64,000 bases of DNA from Candidatus Rokuibacteriota bacterium (GTDB lineage: Bacteria; Methylomirabilota; Methylomirabilia; Rokubacteriales; CSP1-6): NCBI GenBank assembly GCA_016184125.1, contig JACPDG010000051.1, positions 7,983 to 71,982 of the forward strand. Direction: 5' to 3'. Below, in pieces: positions 8,745 to 18,468 of the stretch; positions within the stretch are counted from its first letter, which is position 1, and each line of letters opens with the position of its first letter. Under the pieces are notes generated by a model. That model ran no database searches, was not told the origin of the DNA, and saw only the letters and a list, made by a program, of their open reading frames with translations. The translations under genes and the position numbers were made by a program.

Positions 8745-10592
8745 GTGTCGCGCCACGTCGCGACCGCGCCCGCCATGTTTCTCGGCTCGGACAGGAGCCC
8801 CATGGGTGAGGAAGACCGGCAGCGTCTGACGCTCGTCCAGCGGTTCGGCCTGCTCAGCCTGCCGTGGGTGATCGGCCTGACGATCGCGCTCTGTGGCATC
8901 GCCGCCGCGCTGCTGACCGACCAGATCGTCCGGCATGAGGCGATCGACCTGGGCGAGATGCTGCAAGTCCTCATCCCCAGGGTTCTCGATCCCGAGGCGT
9001 TCGACAAGCCACCCGGAACGGCCCCCGGGATCGCCCGCGCGTTCGAGGAGCTGGCGCCCTCGAGGTCGATCGTGCGCGTGATCGTGTACGACCGGCGTGG
9101 CCGCGTCCTCTGGTCGGACGACAAGACGCTGATCGGCGGTGAGTACCCTGACAATCCGAAGCTGCAGGCCGCGCTGCGCGGTCGGCTGGACGCGTCGATC
9201 ATTCACCCCGGCACCAGCGCCGAACCCCACCACGCGGCGCTCAGGGGGTCCGATCGGCTCCTCGAGATGTACGTGCCCGTGCGATTCGGCCGCAACGCTC
9301 CGATCGTCGGCGCCGTCGAGCTCTACCGCGACGCGCCAGGGGTCCTCGTCCTGCTCGATCGCAGCGTGGGTATCCTGTGGGTGCTCGGCGGCCTTGCGGG
9401 TGCGGCGCTCTACGTCATCCTGGTCGTCATCGTCCGCCGGGCCTCGGCCCGGCAGCTCGCCCTGGAGGGGCAGCTCCGGGCGCACGCGCGGGACCTCGAG
9501 GAGCGAGTCGCGGAGCGAACCGCCGCACTGCGCGAGACCGGCGCCCGCTTGGAGAACGTCCTCGAGAGCTCCGCGGACGCGATCGTGACCCTCGACCAGC
9601 GGGGTGTCATCGCCTTCGCCAACCGCGCCGCGGTGCGGATCTTCGGTTACAGCCAGGACGCGCTCGTCGGGACGCGCCCGGCCACGTACTGGCTACACGG
9701 GCGCCGCGACTTCCGCGCACTGCGCCGCGCTCTGGTCAGGAACGAGCGCGTGGAGAACCACGAGACCGAGCTGCGGGCGGCCGACGGGCGCACCGTCATC
9801 GTCGACGTGTCAGCGTCGCTGCTGCGCTGCCCGCGGCGCGGCGTCACCGGTGCGGTGGGCGTGCTGCGCGATGTCACGGAGCTGCGCGCGCTGCACGAGC
9901 AGATGCTCCGGACCGAGCGACTGGCGACGGCCGGCCTCCTGGCGGCCGGGGTGGCCCACGAGGTGGGGAACCCGCTGATGTGCATCTCCTCGGTGGCGCA
10001 GGTTCTCAAGAAGCAGAGCACCGTGCCGGCCGTCCAGCGCGGCGTGGACGAGATCCAGCGCCACGTCCAGCGCATCGCCCGCATCGTGCGCGATGTGAGC
10101 CGCGTCGCACGGTCGTCGCGCCTCCAGCTCCGGACGGTCGCGGTCGAGGACGTGCTCCGGACAGCGGTCGACCTCGCACGGCACGTGCCCGGAGCGCGGG
10201 CGATCTCGATCGACGTCGAGTGCGAGACGGGGATGCCGCGTCTGCGCGGCGATCCCGACCGCCTCGCCCAGGTCTTCCTCAATCTGATCCTGAACGCCGT
10301 GGACGCGGGTGCCAACCTGACCGTGCGCGCCACCGCGCGCGATGGCGATGTGCGGGTGGTCTTCACGGACAAGGGACCGGGGATCGGGCCGGAGACTCTG
10401 GCGCGGGTCTTCGACCCGTTCTTCTCGACCAAGGCCGATGGCCACGCGGGCCTCGGTCTCTTCGTGAGTCGAGAGACGATCCGCGAGCATGGCGGGCTCC
10501 TGCTGGTGGAGAGCCGTCCAGGGCACGGCTCGACGTTCACGGTGCAGCTGCCGGTCGATCGGATCACGGAAAAGGCAGAGTGGCGGGAATGA
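8745..10592 (+). CDS. Membrane PAS-domain sensor histidine kinase (NtrB-like)
   Basis: Two TM segments, PAS (DAIVTLD...NRAA), H-box AHEVGNPL, N-box QVFLNLILNA, G-boxes DKGPGI and GLGL. Confidence 0.92.
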   Translation: MSRHVATAPAMFLGSDRSPMGEEDRQRLTLVQRFGLLSLPWVIGLTIALCGIAAALLTDQIVRHEAIDLGEMLQVLIPRVLDPEAFDKPPGTAPGIARAFEELAPSRSIVRVIVYDRRGRVLWSDDKTLIGGEYPDNPKLQAALRGRLDASIIHPGTSAEPHHAALRGSDRLLEMYVPVRFGRNAPIVGAVELYRDAPGVLVLLDRSVGILWVLGGLAGAALYVILVVIVRRASARQLALEGQLRAHARDLEERVAERTAALRETGARLENVLESSADAIVTLDQRGVIAFANRAAVRIFGYSQDALVGTRPATYWLHGRRDFRALRRALVRNERVENHETELRAADGRTVIVDVSASLLRCPRRGVTGAVGVLRDVTELRALHEQMLRTERLATAGLLAAGVAHEVGNPLMCISSVAQVLKKQSTVPAVQRGVDEIQRHVQRIARIVRDVSRVARSSRLQLRTVAVEDVLRTAVDLARHVPGARAISIDVECETGMPRLRGDPDRLAQVFLNLILNAVDAGANLTVRATARDGDVRVVFTDKGPGIGPETLARVFDPFFSTKADGHAGLGLFVSRETIREHGGLLLVESRPGHGSTFTVQLPVDRITEKAEWRE

Positions 10593-11896
10593 AGCCGTCG
10601 ATCTTGGTGGTGGACGATGAGTCGACGCTCCAGGAGACCCTCCGGTGGACCTTCGAGCACAACGGCTGGCGCGTGGTCGTGTCGGGCACGGGCGAGGAGG
10701 CGATCAGGTGCCTCAAGACCGATCGCTTCGACATCGTCGTCACCGACATCCGCCTGCCCGGTATCGACGGTATCGAGGTGCTCCGCTGCGCTCGCTCGCT
10801 CGTGGCGCGGCCACCGGTCGTGCTGATCACCGCGTACGGGACCGTCGAGACGGCGGTGGCCGCGCTTCGCCACGGGGCCGCCGACTACATCCTGAAGCCG
10901 TTCGATCTCGATGACCTGAAGGCGCGCGTGGAGCGCCTGGTCGACGACACAACCGCGACGAGGCGGCGCTGGGCCGACCCGCTCGGCGAGATCGTGGGTC
11001 AGACCCCGGGGATCCAGGCCTTGCGACAGCAGGTGCAGAAGGCCGCGATGACGAGCAGCAACGTGCTGATCACGGGTGAGACCGGCGCCGGGAAGGACCT
11101 GGTCGCGCGGAGCATCCATGCTGTGAGTGTCAGGCACGCCCATCGGTTCGTCGCGGTGAACTGCGGCGCTGTCCCGGACACGCTGTTCGAGAGCCAGCTC
11201 TTCGGCCACGCGCGCGGGGCCTTCACCGGTGCCGTCCAGGCCAACCCCGGGCTCATGGTGGCCGCCGACAAGGGCACGCTCTTCCTCGACGAGGTCGGCG
11301 AGCTGCCGTTGCTGCTGCAGGTCAAGCTCCTGCGCGCGCTCGAGGCCAAGGAAGTGTGGCCGGTCGGGCAGACACGCGCCGTGCCGACCGACTGCCGCAT
11401 CATCGCGAGCACGAACCGTGACGTCGAGGCCGAGGTCGCGGCGGGCCGCCTGCGTGCGGACCTCTTCTACCGCCTGAAGGTCGTGCACATCACCGTTCCG
11501 CCGCTGCGCGAGCGGCGGGCCGACATCCCACTCCTGGCCAAGCACCTCCTGTACCAGATCAACGGGCGGCTCGGCACCTGCGTGGCCGGTGTCGAACCCG
11601 ACGCGATGCACGCCCTGATGAACCACGACTGGAAAGGCAACGTCCGCGAGCTGCAGCACGCGCTCGAAAGCGCCATCGTCAACGGCGCCGACGAGCGCAT
11701 CACGCTCGAGGCCCTTCCGCGCGACGTGAACCCGATGGCGGCCCAGATACCGCTCAAGGAAGCGACGCGCCAGTTCGAGCGAGCGCGGGTGCTCGAGGCG
11801 CTCGCACAGACGGGCTTCGACAAGCGGGAGGCGGCCCGCCTGCTCGGGCTCAGCATGGCCTCGCTCTACCGCAAGCTGGACGATCGTTCGGAGTAG
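10589..11896 (+). CDS. Sigma-54-dependent response regulator (REC-AAA+-Fis HTH)
   Basis: ILVVDDE, TDIRLPG, Walker A GETGAGKD, GAFTGA, WKGNVREL, SLYRKL. Confidence 0.95.
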   Translation: MKPSILVVDDESTLQETLRWTFEHNGWRVVVSGTGEEAIRCLKTDRFDIVVTDIRLPGIDGIEVLRCARSLVARPPVVLITAYGTVETAVAALRHGAADYILKPFDLDDLKARVERLVDDTTATRRRWADPLGEIVGQTPGIQALRQQVQKAAMTSSNVLITGETGAGKDLVARSIHAVSVRHAHRFVAVNCGAVPDTLFESQLFGHARGAFTGAVQANPGLMVAADKGTLFLDEVGELPLLLQVKLLRALEAKEVWPVGQTRAVPTDCRIIASTNRDVEAEVAAGRLRADLFYRLKVVHITVPPLRERRADIPLLAKHLLYQINGRLGTCVAGVEPDAMHALMNHDWKGNVRELQHALESAIVNGADERITLEALPRDVNPMAAQIPLKEATRQFERARVLEALAQTGFDKREAARLLGLSMASLYRKLDDRSE

Positions 11897-11901
11897 CCGC
11901 T

Positions 11902-11945
11902 TCTCGAAAACGACAGACGCCGGAGCCCGATTCTCAGCGCTGACA
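11902..11945. promoter_or_regulatory. Paired enhancer-like (UAS) palindromes, set 1
   Basis: TCTCG-AAAA-CGACA (11902) and TCTCA-GCGC-TGACA (11932), 30 bp apart, 70-110 bp upstream of a -24/-12 motif. Confidence 0.6.
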
Positions 11946-12012
11946 CGCCACTGCCGCCCGCCTTCCGCCGCCTGCATCATCTTCCGCCCACACCGAACCT
12001 ACGTCGGCGGCA

Positions 12013-12028
12013 TGGCACGCCGTCTGCT
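12013..12028 (+). promoter_or_regulatory. Sigma-54 -24/-12 promoter P1
   Basis: TGGCACGCCGTCTGCT, near-consensus with GG and GC 12 bp apart. Confidence 0.75.
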
Positions 12029-12046
12029 GGGCCGACCCACCCGTCG

Positions 12047-12238
12047 ATGAGCGCAGAGCCGCAGCTGGTGGTCATCGAGATCCTCGAAGGCAAGCGGACG
12101 CTGAAGGAAGCGATCCGTAGCTTCGAGCGTGAGTGCGTCCTCGCCGCGCTCGAGCGCGCGAACTTCGACAAGCGACGGGCCGCGAGCCTGCTCGGTATCA
12201 GCCTCGCCTCGCTCTACCGCAAGCTGGAACGCTCGTAG
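12047..12238 (+). CDS. Stand-alone Fis-type HTH mini-protein (63 aa), paralogous to the C-terminus of the upstream activator
   Basis: 29/42 identical residues to the regulator HTH region; same ASLYRKL recognition helix. Confidence 0.8.
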   Translation: MSAEPQLVVIEILEGKRTLKEAIRSFERECVLAALERANFDKRRAASLLGISLASLYRKLERS

Positions 12239-12338
12239 CGTCCACGATCTGCGCTCGGTGACGCCGGTACGCACCGGCTTCCACCCCCGACGCGGGCAGG
12301 GGGGTGGCAGCGCGCCTCTCAAAAGCTGGCGTCACGGT

Positions 12339-12384
12339 TCTCAAGGCTGAGAGCGACCGCCCGCGGCTCATCTCAACTCTGCGA
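12339..12384. promoter_or_regulatory. Paired enhancer-like (UAS) palindromes, set 2
   Basis: TCTCA-AGGC-TGAGA (12339, perfect) and TCTCA-ACTC-TGCGA (12371), 32 bp apart; extra TCTCA half-site at 12317. Confidence 0.6.
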
Positions 12385-12462
12385 ACGGAGCACCCGCCGC
12401 TATAGGTCAATGTACCTGTTTTTCTGGCGATTTAATGATGCGTATGCGTCATCGTGCGGCCG

Positions 12463-12478
12463 CGGCATTCCCGGTGCA
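12463..12478 (+). promoter_or_regulatory. Candidate sigma-54 promoter P2 for the oxidase operon
   Basis: CGGCATTCCCGGTGCA with correct GG/GC spacing; AT-rich tract 12401-12440 lies between it and UAS set 2. Confidence 0.5.
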
Positions 12479-12621
12479 CTACGCCGCACCGCGTATTCGT
12501 CGCTTCGCCGACGAGCTCGCATCTCTGCGCAGGTCCACGAGGAGTGCCTCACGCGAAGGAGGGACTGATGCGGAGCGGACCGGTCCACGCGCAACCGACA
12601 CGACGCAAGGAGAGACGCACG

Positions 12622-15600
12622 ATGACGCCGCACCGCACACGAGCCCGCATTCCCGCACTCACGACCCGCCGCCGTGCGATCGGCCTGCTCGGCCCGATCG
12701 TGCTCGTCGCCGTGTTGCTCGCGGCGGTCCTTCCCGGTCCCGCCCATGGGCATGGGGCCTGCGCCACCACGGTGGTGGCCGACGTGGTCGCCTTCGACAC
12801 GCCGATGATGTTCAACCGCCTGGGCGCGCAGAACCCGAACTGGATCACGTACGCGCTGAAGCGCGACGTGGTCGCCCTCACGGGCGGCGCCGCGGGGCCC
12901 GGTAACGCCCAGATGCGCAAGGACAAGCGGATTCGCCCGCTCGTCCTGCGCGTCAACGAGGGCGATTGCCTGAAGGTCAACTTCACCAACTGGCTCGCCG
13001 GCGCAGCGAACCCGTTCGTCAACGCCGACCGCGAGCCGCCGATGAACCTCGAGTCGCCGTTCCTGAAGATCGACGACCAGGTGCGTGGCCGCTACGCCGG
13101 CTTCCACGTGCGCGGTCTGCAGCTCGCCGGCACCATCGCGTCCGACGCCTCCAACGTCGGCAGGAACGCCAGCAGCCTGGTCCCGTCCGGCGGCGGCGCG
13201 ACGTACACCTACTTCGCTCCACCAGGGACGCGTGGCGCCTACCTTGCGGACAGCTACGGCGCGACGTTCGGCGGAGAAGCCACGGCCGGCAACACGGGCC
13301 AGGGCATGTTCGCCGTCGTCAACGTGGAGCCGAAGGGCGCCCGCTGGTACCGCAGCCAGGTGACCGATGAGGAGCTGCGGCTGGCCACGACGGGCACGAC
13401 GGCGGCCGGCCAGCCGATTCTCAGTTATGAGGCGCGCTATCCGGCGACGAACCCCGACGGGTCGCCGAGCATCTGGTTCGCCGAGGGCAAGGCAAACCTG
13501 CCGATCCTCAACATGAGGGACGGCAACGCCATCGTCCACTCGGACATCAACGCGATCATCGCTGGCCCGAATCCCGACGGTACCTTCCCGGCGAGCACCT
13601 ACCCGCTGGAGAGCGCCGGCAAGCGCAATCCGGCCGTGCCCAACCGGCTGGAGCCGTTCCGCGAGTTCACCACCGTCTTCCACGATGAGCCGTCCGTGGG
13701 GCAGGCGTTCCCGGGCTTCTACGACGCCAACCCGGTCACCAGGCGCCTCCTCCACGGCGTCCGCGACGGGTTCATGATCAACTACGGCTCGGGCGGCATC
13801 GGCTCGGAAATCATCGCCAACCGCCTGGGCGTGGGGCCGATGTGGGACTGCCTCTCCTGCGCCTACGAGGAGTTCTTCCTCGGCTCCTCGGAGGTTGGCG
13901 ACCCGGCGATGCTGGTCGACATTCCTGCGAACGTCGGCCTCGAAGCCTGCGACGTCGCGGGCGCGAACTGCCTCGACGTCGGGCCGAAGGCGACCAAGGC
14001 GCTCTTCCCGGACGACCCGTCGAACGTCCATCACAGCTACCAGAACGACCGGGTCGTGTTCCGGAACCTGCACGCGGGGAAGGAGCACCACATCTTCCAC
14101 CTCCACAACCACCAGTGGCTCTTCGACGCCAACGACGACAACTCGAACTATCTGGACGCCCAGGCGATCGGCCCAGGCTCCGGGTACACGTACGAGATCA
14201 ACTTCGGCGGCAGCGGCAACCGCAACAAGACTGCCGGCGACGCGATCTTCCACTGCCACTTCTATCCCCACTTCGCCCAGGGCATGTGGGAGCTGTGGCG
14301 GATCCACGACGTGTACGAGACCGGCACGCAGCTGGACGTGAGCGGTGGTGGCTTCCACACCGTGCCCTTCGCCCTGTTCGACGGCACGCCGGCCGTGTCG
14401 TCCAGCGTGCCTGGGGCCCGGATGAGGGCACTGCCCGACGGTGAGATCCTGGCCGGCACGCCGATCCCGGCTCTGGTCCCGCTCCCCGGCAAGGCGCTGC
14501 CGCTGATGCCGGGCGAGGTCGTGGTCGTCCAGAAGAACGCCAATCCCGGCGTGGACGAGGTCCCCGACGACCCGGTGGCATGCGCCGCGGATCCGAACGG
14601 GCCGACCTGCGGCGTCCAGGCGCTGCCGGATTCGAGCCAAGCCCACGTGGTCGACCGCGCGCAGAACCCCGGCTACCCGTTCTGGATCGCCGGTGTCGAT
14701 TGTGGCGGCGACCCCGTGAACTGCCCGCTCGGGGTCGTGGGCCAGCGGCCCCCGACGCCGGTCCTCGACATGCTGAGCGAGGGTCAGGCCGCCGGGCTCC
14801 GCGCCGGCAACGGCACGCTGTTCGGCGCGCTCAACAACCTGGGCGGCCCGGCCGACGGCGGCTGGGACGGCGGGCTGCCGCGCCACGCGCTCGACGGCTT
14901 CCTGGCCGCCGGTGGCCGGACGCCGGACGTGTTCCACCAGGAGCAGACCAAGCTCAGCTTCGACAAGGAGATCTTCAAGGCCAAGCCGGTCTGGTTCCCC
15001 GAGGGCGGCACCGATGTCGAGCAGGCTGCGATGGCGTTCCATGCCGTCCGTGCCTACCCGAGCACCGCGGTGCGGCTTGACGGCACTACCACCACGGCCG
15101 ACTACATCACCAACGGCGGACCGCCCCAGGCGGGCGCGCCCATGTCCGAGCCGTGCATCGACGACAGGGGCGTCACGCTCTTCACCGGTGTCACGGGGCA
15201 GTGGTTCGGCTCGACGCCGGGGAGCCTGGTGAGCCTCGGCACCTCGCCGTTCAGCGCGACCGCGCCGCGCGTCTACAAGGGCGCCAACATCCAGATCGAC
15301 GCGGTCTTCAACAAGGTCGGCACCCACTACCCCCAGCAGCGGATCATCTCGCTCTGGGAGGACGCGCTGCCGTTCATCGACAAGCAGAAACCGCCGGAAC
15401 CCTTCGTCATCCGCAACAACACGCTCGACTGCACGCGGTACCTGCACACGAACCTGGTGCCCAAGCGCTTCGAGGTGGACGACTACCAGGTGACGACGCC
15501 GACGGACGTGATCGGCCAGCACATCCACCTGCCCAAGTGGGACCTGCCGGCGGCGGACGGCTCGGGCAACGGCTGGAACTACGAGGACGGGACGCTGTCG

Positions 15601-18468
15601 CCCGGCGCGGTGCGCGAGCGGATCCACGCGATCAACGCGTTCAATCCCAGCGGAGCCGGCAACCCGGCCAACAGCGCCGGCGGCGGCGCCAACGAGCCGC
15701 TCGTGGCGCTGCCCCATCCGTTCTTCGGCGGCGGCCAGGGTGGCGAGTGGGTCGGCGCCCGCACGACCATGCAGCGCTGGTTCTTCGACCCCGTGCTGAA
15801 CGTCCACCACGTGGACCGTGGGCTCGGTATCATCTTCACCCACGACCACTTCGGGCCCTCCACCGTCCAGCAGATCGGCCTCTACGCGACGGTGCTGGCC
15901 GAGCCCGCCGGCTCGCAGTGGGTGCACAACGAGACGGGCGTGCCGATGTACACGCGCGCGGATGGCGGGCCGACCGGCTGGCAAGCGGCCATTCTTCCCG
16001 GCGCGGGCGGCCAGCAGTTCGAGGCGTTCCGCGAGTTCTGGTTCCAGCACAGCGACTTCCAGAGCGCCTACGCGGCCGGGGTCTACATCGGCGCCGGGCC
16101 GGACGGCCGGCCGAACGCCGTGCTCCCGGATGCCAACAGCTTCCGGGACGCGATCAACCCGTCGGTCAGAGAGTTCGCGAACCCGGTGTTCCCGGACGTG
16201 ATCCGGCACGCGGCGGACTGCAAGGACGGTACGCCGCGGCCCTGTCCAGAAGCGATCTCGGCAGACGACCCCGGGTTCTTCGTGACCAACTACCGCAACG
16301 AGCCCGTGGGCTGGCGCGTGTTCGATCCGAACAAGATCGGGCCCGACGGCAAGCCCGGCACCCAGGCTGACGGCCAGGCTGGTGACCTCGCGTTCGCGCT
16401 CCAGACGAGGACCGACCGCAAGGTCCCCGAGCTGAACACGCGGCTCGGCAACACCCCGTACCCGCCGCTCACCGCGGACATCGGCCCCGGCGACCCGTTC
16501 ACGCCGCTGATGCGGTCGTACGCCGGCGACGTGATCCGCATCAAGTCCCAGGCCGGCGGCGACGAGGCGGAGCACAACTTCGCGCTCAACGCGGTCAAGT
16601 GGCTCCAGGGCGGCTCGGGCCACGGTCGGGGACCGAACACCGGCTGGCGCAACAGCCAGAATCGCGGCATCTCCGAGCAGTTCACCTTCGCGGCCCCGGT
16701 CATTCCCTTCGTCGGGGCGGCGCCCGCCCAGCAGGACTACGCGTACTCGCACAGCACGGGTGGGGACGGCTGGTGGTCCGGCATGTGGGGCATCCTCCGG
16801 ACGTACAACACGAACAAGCAGGATCTCTTCAAGCTGCCCACGACGGTCCTTCCGACCAAGATCGCGAACGCGAAGGAGTTCAACGGCGTGTGCCCGACGG
16901 CCGCGCCCGTGCGGCGGTACGACGTCACCGCCGTCCTCGCCAACACCGCGCTGGGCAATGCGCTCGGCGTGACGATTCCCGCCAACGTCACCCCGACGGA
17001 CAACGTCGGCGGCCCGCTGGACCCGGCGGGCGGCACGCTCGTCTACAACCCGCGGCCGACGCCGCTGGCGCCGCCGCTCGGCGGCGTCGCGAAGAGCGGC
17101 CCGCTCCACGACCCGACGGCGATCCTGTACGTGCGGACCGCTGACCTCGGACCTGATGGCAAGCTCCTGCCTGGCAAGCCGGTGGAACCGCTCGTGCTGC
17201 GCGCCAACGCCGGCGAGTGCGTGGAGGTGACGCTCAAGAACGGTCTGCCGGGCGACCTGAACGGCAACGGCTTCTTCGACGACAACCCCGACCTCGCGGG
17301 CTTCTCCCAGTTCATCCCGGTTGTCCCGCGGGACAAGAACGACCCTCAGGGCGTGACGTGGTTCGGCAGCAATTTGGTCCGTCCCTCGAGTGTCGTGGGC
17401 CTCCACCCTCAGCTCGTCGCCTACGACGTCACCCGCGACGACGGCATGGTGGTCGGCAAGAACCCGCCGGGCAACGAGGTGGTCGCGCCCGGCCAGCAGA
17501 AGACCTCCCGCTGGTACGTCGGCGACTTGACGCCGGTGCGGGCCGGTGGCAAGGAGTTCAACCTCGTGGCCACGCCGATCGAGTTCGGCGGCTCCAACCT
17601 GATCCCTGCCGACATCCTCAAGCAGGGAGAGAAGGGGTTGCTGGGTGCGTTCAGCATCGGCACCGCTGGCGGCAGCATCGTCGAGACCGACACCACGTGG
17701 GACCATCAGCAGACCGATCCGAACGTGACCCGCCAGACCCGGGCGTCGGCCACGCTCGCGGGGGGCATCCGTGACTTCGCGGTGGTGTTCCAGGATGGCC
17801 TGAACCTCCGCTACGCGGACGGGACGGCCGTCGAGAACATGGGGTCCGGTGAGGAACCCCCGGGCTCCGCGTCCAAGGCTATCAACTACGGCACGGAGCC
17901 GATGTGGTTCCGCTTCGGGCTCCAGCCGACGGCGCCGTTCGGCAACGCCGGGACGCCGGGCAGCTTCGGCGCCGTGCCCAACCCCGAGCAGGCTTACAGC
18001 AATGCGCTCGTCGATGGCGATCCCGCCACCCCGGTCTTCACCGCGGCGCCCGGCGTGCCCGTAAGGATGCACGTCCTGAAGCCGACGGGCATCGCGGTCG
18101 ATGACTTCCACGCCCGAGGCAGCGTGTTCCACCTGCACGGCCACGTCTGGCAGCGCGCGCCGTACGTCTGCCCGGGCCAAGACGACGGCGTGTCCGGCCT
18201 CGACGGGAAGTGCAACGCCACGAACTTCGGCGACCCCGGCTTCGAGCCCGGCTCGCGCGCGATCGGCGTGAACCCGATCGGGATGTACCTGGGAGCGCAG
18301 GACAGCGTGCTGCCGGGCGCTCACTTCGACATCGTGCTCCCCGGCGCGGGCAACGGGCCGACCGGCGGAGCCGGTGGCGTCGGCGGAGTGACCGGTGACT
18401 ACCTCTTCCGCGACCAGGCGTCGTTCGGCAACACGCAGGGCCTCTGGGGAATCATGCGCGTGGAGTAG
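12622..18468 (+). CDS. Giant multicopper oxidase, MnxG-like putative Mn(II) oxidase (~1950 aa; alternative start 12568)
   Basis: Cu motifs HIFHLHNH, FHCHFYPHFAQGM, QHIHLPKWD, FTHDHF, FHLHGH; signal peptide with TRRR; AAGGAG RBS. Confidence 0.85.
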   Translation: MTPHRTRARIPALTTRRRAIGLLGPIVLVAVLLAAVLPGPAHGHGACATTVVADVVAFDTPMMFNRLGAQNPNWITYALKRDVVALTGGAAGPGNAQMRKDKRIRPLVLRVNEGDCLKVNFTNWLAGAANPFVNADREPPMNLESPFLKIDDQVRGRYAGFHVRGLQLAGTIASDASNVGRNASSLVPSGGGATYTYFAPPGTRGAYLADSYGATFGGEATAGNTGQGMFAVVNVEPKGARWYRSQVTDEELRLATTGTTAAGQPILSYEARYPATNPDGSPSIWFAEGKANLPILNMRDGNAIVHSDINAIIAGPNPDGTFPASTYPLESAGKRNPAVPNRLEPFREFTTVFHDEPSVGQAFPGFYDANPVTRRLLHGVRDGFMINYGSGGIGSEIIANRLGVGPMWDCLSCAYEEFFLGSSEVGDPAMLVDIPANVGLEACDVAGANCLDVGPKATKALFPDDPSNVHHSYQNDRVVFRNLHAGKEHHIFHLHNHQWLFDANDDNSNYLDAQAIGPGSGYTYEINFGGSGNRNKTAGDAIFHCHFYPHFAQGMWELWRIHDVYETGTQLDVSGGGFHTVPFALFDGTPAVSSSVPGARMRALPDGEILAGTPIPALVPLPGKALPLMPGEVVVVQKNANPGVDEVPDDPVACAADPNGPTCGVQALPDSSQAHVVDRAQNPGYPFWIAGVDCGGDPVNCPLGVVGQRPPTPVLDMLSEGQAAGLRAGNGTLFGALNNLGGPADGGWDGGLPRHALDGFLAAGGRTPDVFHQEQTKLSFDKEIFKAKPVWFPEGGTDVEQAAMAFHAVRAYPSTAVRLDGTTTTADYITNGGPPQAGAPMSEPCIDDRGVTLFTGVTGQWFGSTPGSLVSLGTSPFSATAPRVYKGANIQIDAVFNKVGTHYPQQRIISLWEDALPFIDKQKPPEPFVIRNNTLDCTRYLHTNLVPKRFEVDDYQVTTPTDVIGQHIHLPKWDLPAADGSGNGWNYEDGTLSPGAVRERIHAINAFNPSGAGNPANSAGGGANEPLVALPHPFFGGGQGGEWVGARTTMQRWFFDPVLNVHHVDRGLGIIFTHDHFGPSTVQQIGLYATVLAEPAGSQWVHNETGVPMYTRADGGPTGWQAAILPGAGGQQFEAFREFWFQHSDFQSAYAAGVYIGAGPDGRPNAVLPDANSFRDAINPSVREFANPVFPDVIRHAADCKDGTPRPCPEAISADDPGFFVTNYRNEPVGWRVFDPNKIGPDGKPGTQADGQAGDLAFALQTRTDRKVPELNTRLGNTPYPPLTADIGPGDPFTPLMRSYAGDVIRIKSQAGGDEAEHNFALNAVKWLQGGSGHGRGPNTGWRNSQNRGISEQFTFAAPVIPFVGAAPAQQDYAYSHSTGGDGWWSGMWGILRTYNTNKQDLFKLPTTVLPTKIANAKEFNGVCPTAAPVRRYDVTAVLANTALGNALGVTIPANVTPTDNVGGPLDPAGGTLVYNPRPTPLAPPLGGVAKSGPLHDPTAILYVRTADLGPDGKLLPGKPVEPLVLRANAGECVEVTLKNGLPGDLNGNGFFDDNPDLAGFSQFIPVVPRDKNDPQGVTWFGSNLVRPSSVVGLHPQLVAYDVTRDDGMVVGKNPPGNEVVAPGQQKTSRWYVGDLTPVRAGGKEFNLVATPIEFGGSNLIPADILKQGEKGLLGAFSIGTAGGSIVETDTTWDHQQTDPNVTRQTRASATLAGGIRDFAVVFQDGLNLRYADGTAVENMGSGEEPPGSASKAINYGTEPMWFRFGLQPTAPFGNAGTPGSFGAVPNPEQAYSNALVDGDPATPVFTAAPGVPVRMHVLKPTGIAVDDFHARGSVFHLHGHVWQRAPYVCPGQDDGVSGLDGKCNATNFGDPGFEPGSRAIGVNPIGMYLGAQDSVLPGAHFDIVLPGAGNGPTGGAGGVGGVTGDYLFRDQASFGNTQGLWGIMRVE

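Follow-up and report, generated by a model that had tools for sequence, protein, structure and literature searches.

The window analysed here is a 64-kb stretch (64,000 nucleotides (nt), G+C content 71%) of contig JACPDG010000051.1, which belongs to a Candidatus Rokuibacteriota metagenome-assembled genome (MAG) of 4.09 Mb in 121 contigs. Its control region 11897-12621 is flanked by + strand genes only: the gene for an NtrC-family sigma-54 activator lies upstream, the gene for an MnxG-type giant multicopper oxidase (mnxG) lies downstream, and an open reading frame (ORF) for a protein of 63 amino acids (aa) is located inside. The region contains two successive modules, each composed of a pair of palindromes followed by a -24/-12 promoter motif, which are designated P1 in module 1 and P2 in module 2. 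The fuller motif of the palindromic sites is TTCTCR-N4-YGAGAA, and its distribution indicates that the palindromes are very likely docking sites of the adjacent activator. In the account that we favour, with a probability of about 0.7, the activator and these enhancers would drive both P1, expressing the small protein, and P2, expressing the mnxG operon. Sequence and comparison establish the motifs, their conservation, their link with one activator clade and the identities of the genes.

Paired palindromes and two promoter motifs

The initial annotation had described four palindromes arranged as two pairs 30 and 32 bp apart, and they were found exactly at 11902, 11932, 12339 and 12371 (Table 1). 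It had also placed the pairs some 70-125 bp upstream of GG-N10-GC motifs at 12013 and 12463. The measured distances are 76-119 bp: counted from the site centres to the GG, they amount to 106 and 76 bp for P1, and to 119 and 87 bp for P2. This is the arrangement of sigma-54 enhancers, namely dyad-symmetric and phased sites roughly 70-150 bp upstream of the promoter. A fifth TCTCA at 12317 is a half-site only.

Table 1. Coordinates of the regulatory elements and of the genes adjoining them in the window.
Feature	Coordinates	Strand	Remarks
Sensor histidine kinase (PAS, HisKA, HATPase_c)	8745..10592	+	Pfam and NCBIfam scans; NCBIfam top match AtoS, under cut-off
NtrC-family sigma-54 activator, 435 aa (REC, AAA+ with GAFTGA, HTH_8)	10589..11896	+	Pfam; start MKPSILVV
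Enhancer site 1a, TTCTCGAAAACGACAG	11901..11916		Core TCTCG-AAAA-CGACA at 11902-11915
Enhancer site 1b, TTCTCAGCGCTGACAC	11931..11946		Core TCTCA-GCGC-TGACA at 11932-11945; 30 bp from 1a
P1, predicted sigma-54 type promoter TGGCACGCCGTCTGCT	12013..12028	+	GG 12014-15, GC 12026-27; predicted start near 12039
63-aa HTH_8-only protein, stand-alone activator-type DNA-binding domain	12047..12238	+	Pfam HTH_8
Enhancer site 2a, TTCTCAAGGCTGAGAG	12338..12353		Core TCTCA-AGGC-TGAGA at 12339-12352, perfect palindrome
Enhancer site 2b, ATCTCAACTCTGCGAA	12370..12385		Core TCTCA-ACTC-TGCGA at 12371-12384; 32 bp from 2a
Spacer between enhancer pair 2 and P2	12388..12454		Length kept, sequence not kept in the X11 variant
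P2, predicted weak sigma-54 type promoter CGGCATTCCCGGTGCA	12463..12478	+	Predicted start near 12489; position and conservation
MnxG-type giant multicopper oxidase, first gene of the target operon	12622..18468	+	NCBIfam NF041487

In the loose form in which it was first written, the palindrome is not enriched in the window (10 matches versus 11.3 expected), although a span of 483 bp accounts for four of its nine distinct places. A stricter form, TTCTCR-N4-YGASA, has 15 matches on both strands of the 4.09-Mb genome, three of them in this region, and the perfect TCTCA-N4-TGAGA occurs in two places genome-wide. The other perfect copy, at C28:59912, was considered as a second target; it is located within another activator's coding sequence and was put down to chance.

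Promoter motifs were scored as matches out of 12 to the consensus TGGCACG-N4-TTGCW. P1 scores 11, a level reached by 37 sites genome-wide on both strands, with no site at 12. P2 scores 8. A sigma-70-type promoter for mnxG was not found in 11800-12700, and comparison of the leaders with Rfam for known RNA elements, for example a Mn riboswitch, gave no match of note. The inverted repeat 12277-12311 was considered as a terminator of the small gene and ruled out: it folds no better than shuffled sequences (z = -0.91) and is deleted in the X11 variant described below.

About 45 bp between pair 2 and P2 (12400-12445) are AT-rich by eye, as against 71% G+C for the genome, and may form a bendable spacer. 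The consensus of integration host factor (IHF), WATCAANNNNTTR, has no match at two or fewer mismatches in this AT-rich stretch. Five HU/IHF-family genes are present in the genome, none of them over the IHF-alpha cut-off.

Conservation in strain variants and related loci

The sequence is contained in groundwater DNA runs only, and diverged strain contigs were recovered from two of these, X7 and X11. The X7 contig spans 11700-12050 with 24 differences, 18 of which fall in 11897-12050. The 48 bp made up of site 1a, site 1b and P1 contain none of them, where about 5.6 would be expected (48 of 154 positions); by our own arithmetic, the probability of zero changes is about 0.001. Positions 11917 and 12012, which border the protected elements, do change.

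The X11 contig is more diverged and can be aligned only in islands, two of which (12347-12387 and 12455-12478) lie between the alignable end of the small gene and the alignable start of mnxG. In this variant, 28 nt ending in TTCTCACAA replace the 103 bp 12244-12346 and recreate site 2a as TTCTCACAACTGAGAG, so that site 2a is kept with a changed spacer; site 2b lies inside the island 12347-12387. Between enhancer pair 2 and P2, 68 unalignable nt stand in place of 67 nt, the island 12455-12478 containing P2 shows two changes in 24, and downstream of P2 a stretch of 38 nt takes the place of 110 nt. It follows from the islands and the kept distance that constraint acts on enhancer pair 2, on P2 and on how far apart they lie. 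It is this conservation that rescues P2 as a putative promoter despite its weak match to the consensus.

Beyond strain level, all palindromes built of 5-mers with gaps of 0-8 were counted over five lineages. TTCTC-N6-GAGAA and TCTCA-N4-TGAGA came out on top, with 10 matches in four lineages, and none of 200 shuffles reached such a count. The motif is thus conserved by an unbiased count, a point on which the initial annotation had staked its reading beforehand.

The genome G040 (locus L005) has the gene order of the window, with the kinase, the activator and mnxG at 48%, 55% and 56% identity, respectively. Its module 1 consists of TCTCA-N4-TGAGA and TCTCT-N4-TGAGA, 30 bp apart, followed by TGGCACAGAAGTTGCC, and its module 2 of TTCTCA-N4-TGAGAA and TTCTCG-N4-TGAGAA, 42 bp apart, followed by TGGCATAGCGTCTGCT about 100 bp before mnxG. 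Each pair precedes TGGCAC/TGGCAT-N5-TGC. The distal sites of both pairs, 134 and 172 bp upstream, are an exception to the distances seen in the window. Between P1 and pair 2, this locus contains a 49-aa ORF (L005:6341-6490) with an AAAGGAG ribosome-binding site and no HTH_8 similarity, and the small helix-turn-helix (HTH) gene of the other lineages corresponds to it in position.

A protein search with the 63-aa ORF retrieved small homologues on further contigs with this layout. Loci L087-L090 carry, in order, a FabH-like gene, the activator, an 83-aa HTH gene, a 1613-aa MnxG-like gene and a beta-propeller gene. L091 comprises the end of the activator, a 73-aa HTH gene and then mnxG, and in L092 the activator is followed by two sites 31 bp apart, TGGCACACTCCCTGCC (P1) and a small HTH ORF. 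Counterparts of P1 are present in L087, L091, L092 and L005, and counterparts of P2 are TGGCACCTCCCGTGCA in L091 and TGGCATAGCGTCTGCT in L005/G040. In every case, the nearest site centre is located 76-130 bp from the GG of the promoter; in L087, P1 lies 95 bp from a single upstream site. The proposal of the initial annotation that the palindromes are the binding site of the activator agrees with this recurrence of motif, spacing and promoter distance and with their conservation in the variants. Its view of both GG-N10-GC motifs as promoters also gained ground. They behave as conserved promoters in related mnxG loci and in the X7 and X11 variants, an rpoN gene is present in the genome, and the activator carries the GAFTGA motif.

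Several features of these loci deserve separate mention. The small HTH ORF of L092 is followed by the gene for a predicted membrane protein instead of mnxG (L092:1390-1717), so the pair of activator and small HTH gene is also found away from mnxG. In L087 (L087:4865-6252) and likewise in L088-L090, the activator has 314-351 aa, with AAA+ and HTH domains and without a receiver domain, and the L087 lineage has no kinase gene between the activator and the FabH-like gene. A perfect-core palindrome, TTCTCGGTCCTGAGAC (5955), is located downstream of P1 in L087, inside the leader of the small HTH gene.

A metagenome scan yielded 45 distinct loci with homologous activators at 51-58% identity. The motif, with one mismatch at most, was found within 300 bp of the activator gene in 31 of them, and its density near activators is 1.3 per kb compared to 0.064 per kb elsewhere in the same contigs, about 20 times higher. 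In L106 and L165, the activator stop is followed by two sites 31-32 bp apart and then by a -24/-12 motif about 80 bp on. Both are soil metagenome loci with a homologous kinase-activator pair; the target is a CueO-like multicopper oxidase of 731 aa in L106 (L106:5195-7718) and a di-haem oxidoreductase of the family DHOR in L165 (L165:2247-3827). From its neighbours, the activator clade seems to be tied to extracellular oxidases in general.

The palindrome is absent from 77 mnxG loci of other phyla that have unrelated activators or no such activators. Among these loci are the closest MnxG homologues (L006, L007 and L014; 76-79% identity), upstream of which both this activator and the motif are missing; the control region therefore does not simply travel with mnxG. 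On the comparisons made, it is the activator and not mnxG that the motif goes with.

A -24/-12 motif on the coding strand, at most 400 bp upstream of mnxG, was detected in 19 of the 77 loci (1.3 expected; none on the opposite strand). L016, L019, L021, L023 and L045 are examples among the 77, from Pyrinomonadaceae and other phyla. Many of these loci also have a kinase and a sigma-54 activator directly upstream, the latter 30-43% identical to the activator of the window. Sigma-54 control of mnxG looks widespread beyond Pseudomonas.

The small protein and the proposed circuit

The 63-aa protein scores 47.0 bits against HTH_8, compared to 37.4 bits for the activator's own domain. The two coding sequences form a direct repeat of 130 nt (11751-11880 and 12099-12228) with 76% nucleotide identity at an offset of 348 bp, while the intergenic parts flanking the repeat do not align outside the motifs. 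In L087-L090 and L091, the gene for a homologue separates the activator gene from mnxG, and in L092 it follows the activator gene; a P1 precedes it in each case. Four lineages retain an intact small ORF, whose products are about 60% identical in amino acid sequence and share 27 invariant residues. In the phylogenetic tree, the small proteins cluster together, separately from the HTH domains of the activators (support 84/88, 85% of bootstrap trees), which suggests that the duplication is old and that the copy has been maintained. A recent duplication in situ was considered as the origin of the small gene and was ruled out by the unalignable intergenic parts and the separate tree group.

An AlphaFold2 (AF2) model of the protein has a predicted local distance difference test (pLDDT) value of 92 and consists of four helices with no other domains. 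The top folds in the PDB are the DNA-binding domain of NtrC4 (including the DNA complex 4fth), the NtrC1 domain and Fis, at a template modelling (TM) score of about 0.68; NtrX and ZraR are further matches, and the best-match identifiers are 4fth, 3e7l, 4l5e and 1ety. The recognition helices of the activator and the small protein are nearly identical (ISLASLYRKL and LSMASLYRKL), from which we infer that the small protein binds the same palindromes as a dimer.

In the favoured account, the kinase would phosphorylate the NtrC-type activator, and activator dimers would occupy the palindrome TTCTCR-N4-YGAGAA. With the sites about three helical turns apart, both dimers would be on the same face of the DNA and could nucleate the active AAA+ ring, which would loop to sigma-54 RNA polymerase at the -24/-12 promoter downstream and open it. 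The output of P1 would be the 63-aa DNA-binding-domain protein, and that of P2 would be mnxG together with the accessory genes. As the least certain step, the small protein on the same palindromes would damp or shape activation, providing negative feedback. From the motifs, gene identities and comparisons, we infer activator binding, dependence on sigma-54, the transcription starts and the function of the small protein.

The initial annotation had taken the two promoters for a cascade, and this part did not stand. The P1 product is HTH_8-only and has no AAA+ domain, so it cannot activate sigma-54 polymerase at P2. Since both promoters carry the same type of enhancer, one activator probably drives P1 and P2 in parallel, with the small protein providing feedback. 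A more specific version, in which the activator-induced copy of the DNA-binding domain competes for the enhancers as a built-in antagonist and caps or pulses oxidase expression, is put forward tentatively. If it were true, the small protein could be the main control in the L087 lineage, whose activator has no receiver domain and no kinase. A domain-only paralogue behind P1 would then be a simple natural feedback design for enhancer-binding proteins.

Several observations weigh against the favoured account. The consensus match of P2, taken alone, is at chance level: it includes the GG/GC core only, and sites scoring 8 occur about 1.1 times per kb per strand. In the L087 lineage, mnxG is preceded by enhancer sites but by no recognisable P2. 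G040 keeps P1 with no HTH ORF behind it in any frame, so P1 may serve a role besides expression of the small protein. The predicted start of P1 (~12039) is only 8 nt before the ATG of the small ORF and there is no Shine-Dalgarno sequence, so that translation would be nearly leaderless; in L092, the corresponding distance is about 3 nt, and a Shine-Dalgarno sequence is likewise lacking. A consensus terminator scan revealed no + strand terminator between the small gene and module 2, and in the absence of a significant terminator there P1 transcripts may read on into mnxG. In addition, the helix SLASLYRKL is common to many activators of the clade, and the identity of the helices therefore does not prove identical specificity.

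Should P2 be a chance match, mnxG would be transcribed by read-through from P1 or from an unrecognised promoter, and pair 2 would act as a roadblock or as an operator of the small protein. The frequency of sites at the 8/12 level, roughly one per kb per strand, fits this, as does L087, which has one palindrome downstream of P1 and lacks P2. However, X11 keeps 12455-12478 and its distance to pair 2 while the flanks are replaced, and in L091 and L005 the corresponding position is occupied by -24/-12 motifs stronger than P2; we regard a chance match as improbable. It is unlikely, too, that P1 and P2 are tandem promoters both serving mnxG, with the small HTH gene as a passenger or of little function and the two modules only widening the dynamic range of oxidase expression. 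Tandem promoters would be consistent with the missing sigma-70-like promoter, with the lack of a significant terminator ahead of module 2, with the retention of both modules without the HTH ORF in G040 and with a small ORF in the window that has no Shine-Dalgarno sequence. A mere passenger would hardly be expected to stay intact in four lineages with 27 invariant residues and to score above the activator's own domain against HTH_8; moreover, the small proteins have a tree group of their own, and L092 has the small ORF and P1 without mnxG downstream.

The order of HTH, enhancer pair and promoter occurs twice in succession, and together with the 130-nt direct repeat at 76% identity this could be read as a partial tandem duplication of the 3' end of the activator and the original control region, of which module 1 and the small ORF would be a relic in decay, with function confined to module 2. 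Such decay is very unlikely: P1 matches the promoter consensus better than P2 and has been conserved in five lineages, X7 leaves 1a, 1b and P1 unchanged despite about 12% divergence around them, the intergenic parts are unalignable outside the motifs, and the small HTH proteins group together and not with their own activators, which points to an old duplication under selection. Nor do we give much credence to the palindromes being operators of another regulator, for example a metal-responsive repressor, with the activator binding elsewhere or acting from solution. The genome does encode more than 30 other sigma-54 activators. Nevertheless, the motif follows the activator clade to loci with other target genes and is missing from the 77 mnxG loci with unrelated or no activators; position, pairing and phasing are of the sigma-54 enhancer type, and this type of HTH is unique to the locus in the genome.

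Comparison with known systems and genomic setting

In Pseudomonas putida GB-1, the sigma-54-dependent MnxR and two kinases are required for Mn oxidation, mnxG and mcoA are transcribed less when mnxR is deleted, and the promoters of both genes have predicted sigma-54 and IHF sites (PMC13689576; bioRxiv 10.1101/2024.09.19.613919). Sigma-54 control of mnxG was therefore already known. The locus described here was compared by description with GB-1 MnxS1/MnxS2/MnxR and is similar in that a sigma-54 response regulator would control an MnxG-type operon including SCO1, in that -24/-12 promoters are predicted upstream of oxidase genes and in that homologous activators here, too, adjoin other oxidases (a CueO-like multicopper oxidase and a di-haem oxidoreductase). 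Unlike in GB-1, where the regulators PputGB1_2519-2521 are not adjacent to mnxG (PputGB1_2447), the regulator genes are located directly upstream here, and a single kinase is present instead of two paralogous kinases accompanying MnxR (PputGB1_2521). IHF sites are predicted in GB-1, and none is recognisable here. The descriptions of GB-1 give neither an MnxR site nor a stand-alone DNA-binding-domain gene (PMC13689576; bioRxiv 10.1101/2024.09.19.613919). The host also differs, being an uncultured groundwater bacterium of the Methylomirabilota/Rokubacteria group and not a Pseudomonas.

What is added here is an enhancer motif for one activator clade, the adjacency of regulator and target, a second module in tandem and a conserved domain-only paralogue. 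TTCTCR-N4-YGAGAA is a concrete, testable motif for an activator clade that is common in soil and groundwater metagenomes. Overall, the system appears to be an ordinary bacterial switch in a new host, with one unusual component.

At the Escherichia coli promoter glnAp2, NtrC has two strong sites centred near -140 and -108, and the activator dimers nucleate the active oligomer. The control region studied here is similar to it, with two dyads about three turns apart, roughly 80-140 bp upstream, and an activator of REC-AAA+-Fis-type HTH composition. The recognition sequence TTCTCR-N4-YGAGAA differs from the TGCACC-N5-GGTGCA type of NtrC, as does the regulon, and unlike glnAp2 the module is duplicated in tandem, with one copy predicted to express a domain-only paralogue. 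AtoS/AtoC and ZraS/ZraR share the domain order and are the best-scoring curated families, but their target genes are unrelated to those found here.

Fis, which has an N-terminal arm, acts globally as a nucleoid protein and is not linked to a particular activator. By contrast, the 63-aa protein is encoded beside an activator of the parent type, behind a predicted promoter with that activator's own enhancer. The modelled four-helix fold of the 63-aa protein resembles that of Fis and of the NtrC4 and NtrC1 DNA-binding domains. Fis has been regarded as a stand-alone descendant of the NtrC DNA-binding domain (Morett and Bork 1998, as cited in PMC11407668).

The stop of the kinase gene (10592) overlaps the start of the activator gene (10589), which fits a cognate kinase in one operon with an NtrC-family activator. 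Only one kinase gene precedes the activator, and the gene before the kinase encodes a FabH-like synthase. REC, Sigma54_activat and a C-terminal Fis-type HTH were recognised in the activator with Pfam, and GAFTGA is visible in the translation. Its top NCBIfam matches are AtoC (383 bits), ZraR (358 bits) and NtrC, all under the equivalog cut-offs. Assignment as an AtoC, ZraR or NtrC equivalog was excluded, the scores being far under the cut-offs (714 and 760 bits), and no MnxR model is among the NCBIfam matches of the activator.

A single rpoN gene was found in the genome (contig C5; PF04552 match of 210 bits). Within this genome, which encodes more than 30 sigma-54 activators, the helix G-[ILV]-S-x-x-S-L-Y-R-K-L is limited to the activator and the 63-aa protein, which makes cross-talk unlikely.

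The mnxG-type gene has its ATG at 12622, preceded by AAGGAG, and encodes a product of about 1950 aa. The NCBIfam model NF041487 aligns with it end to end at 2250 bits, below the equivalog cut-off of 3100. According to the Pfam scan, the genes after mnxG encode a beta-propeller protein, a binding-protein/cytochrome c and SCO1.

In the genome set G001-G243, mnxG is present in two of the 183 genomes of the same order, the second being G040. The MAGs that contain the closest MnxG homologues are labelled Deltaproteobacteria, Acidobacteria and Betaproteobacteria, and the genes upstream of mnxG in them are different ones. The rarity of mnxG in the order and the homologues in other phyla point to a patchy distribution or to horizontal transfer of the oxidase.

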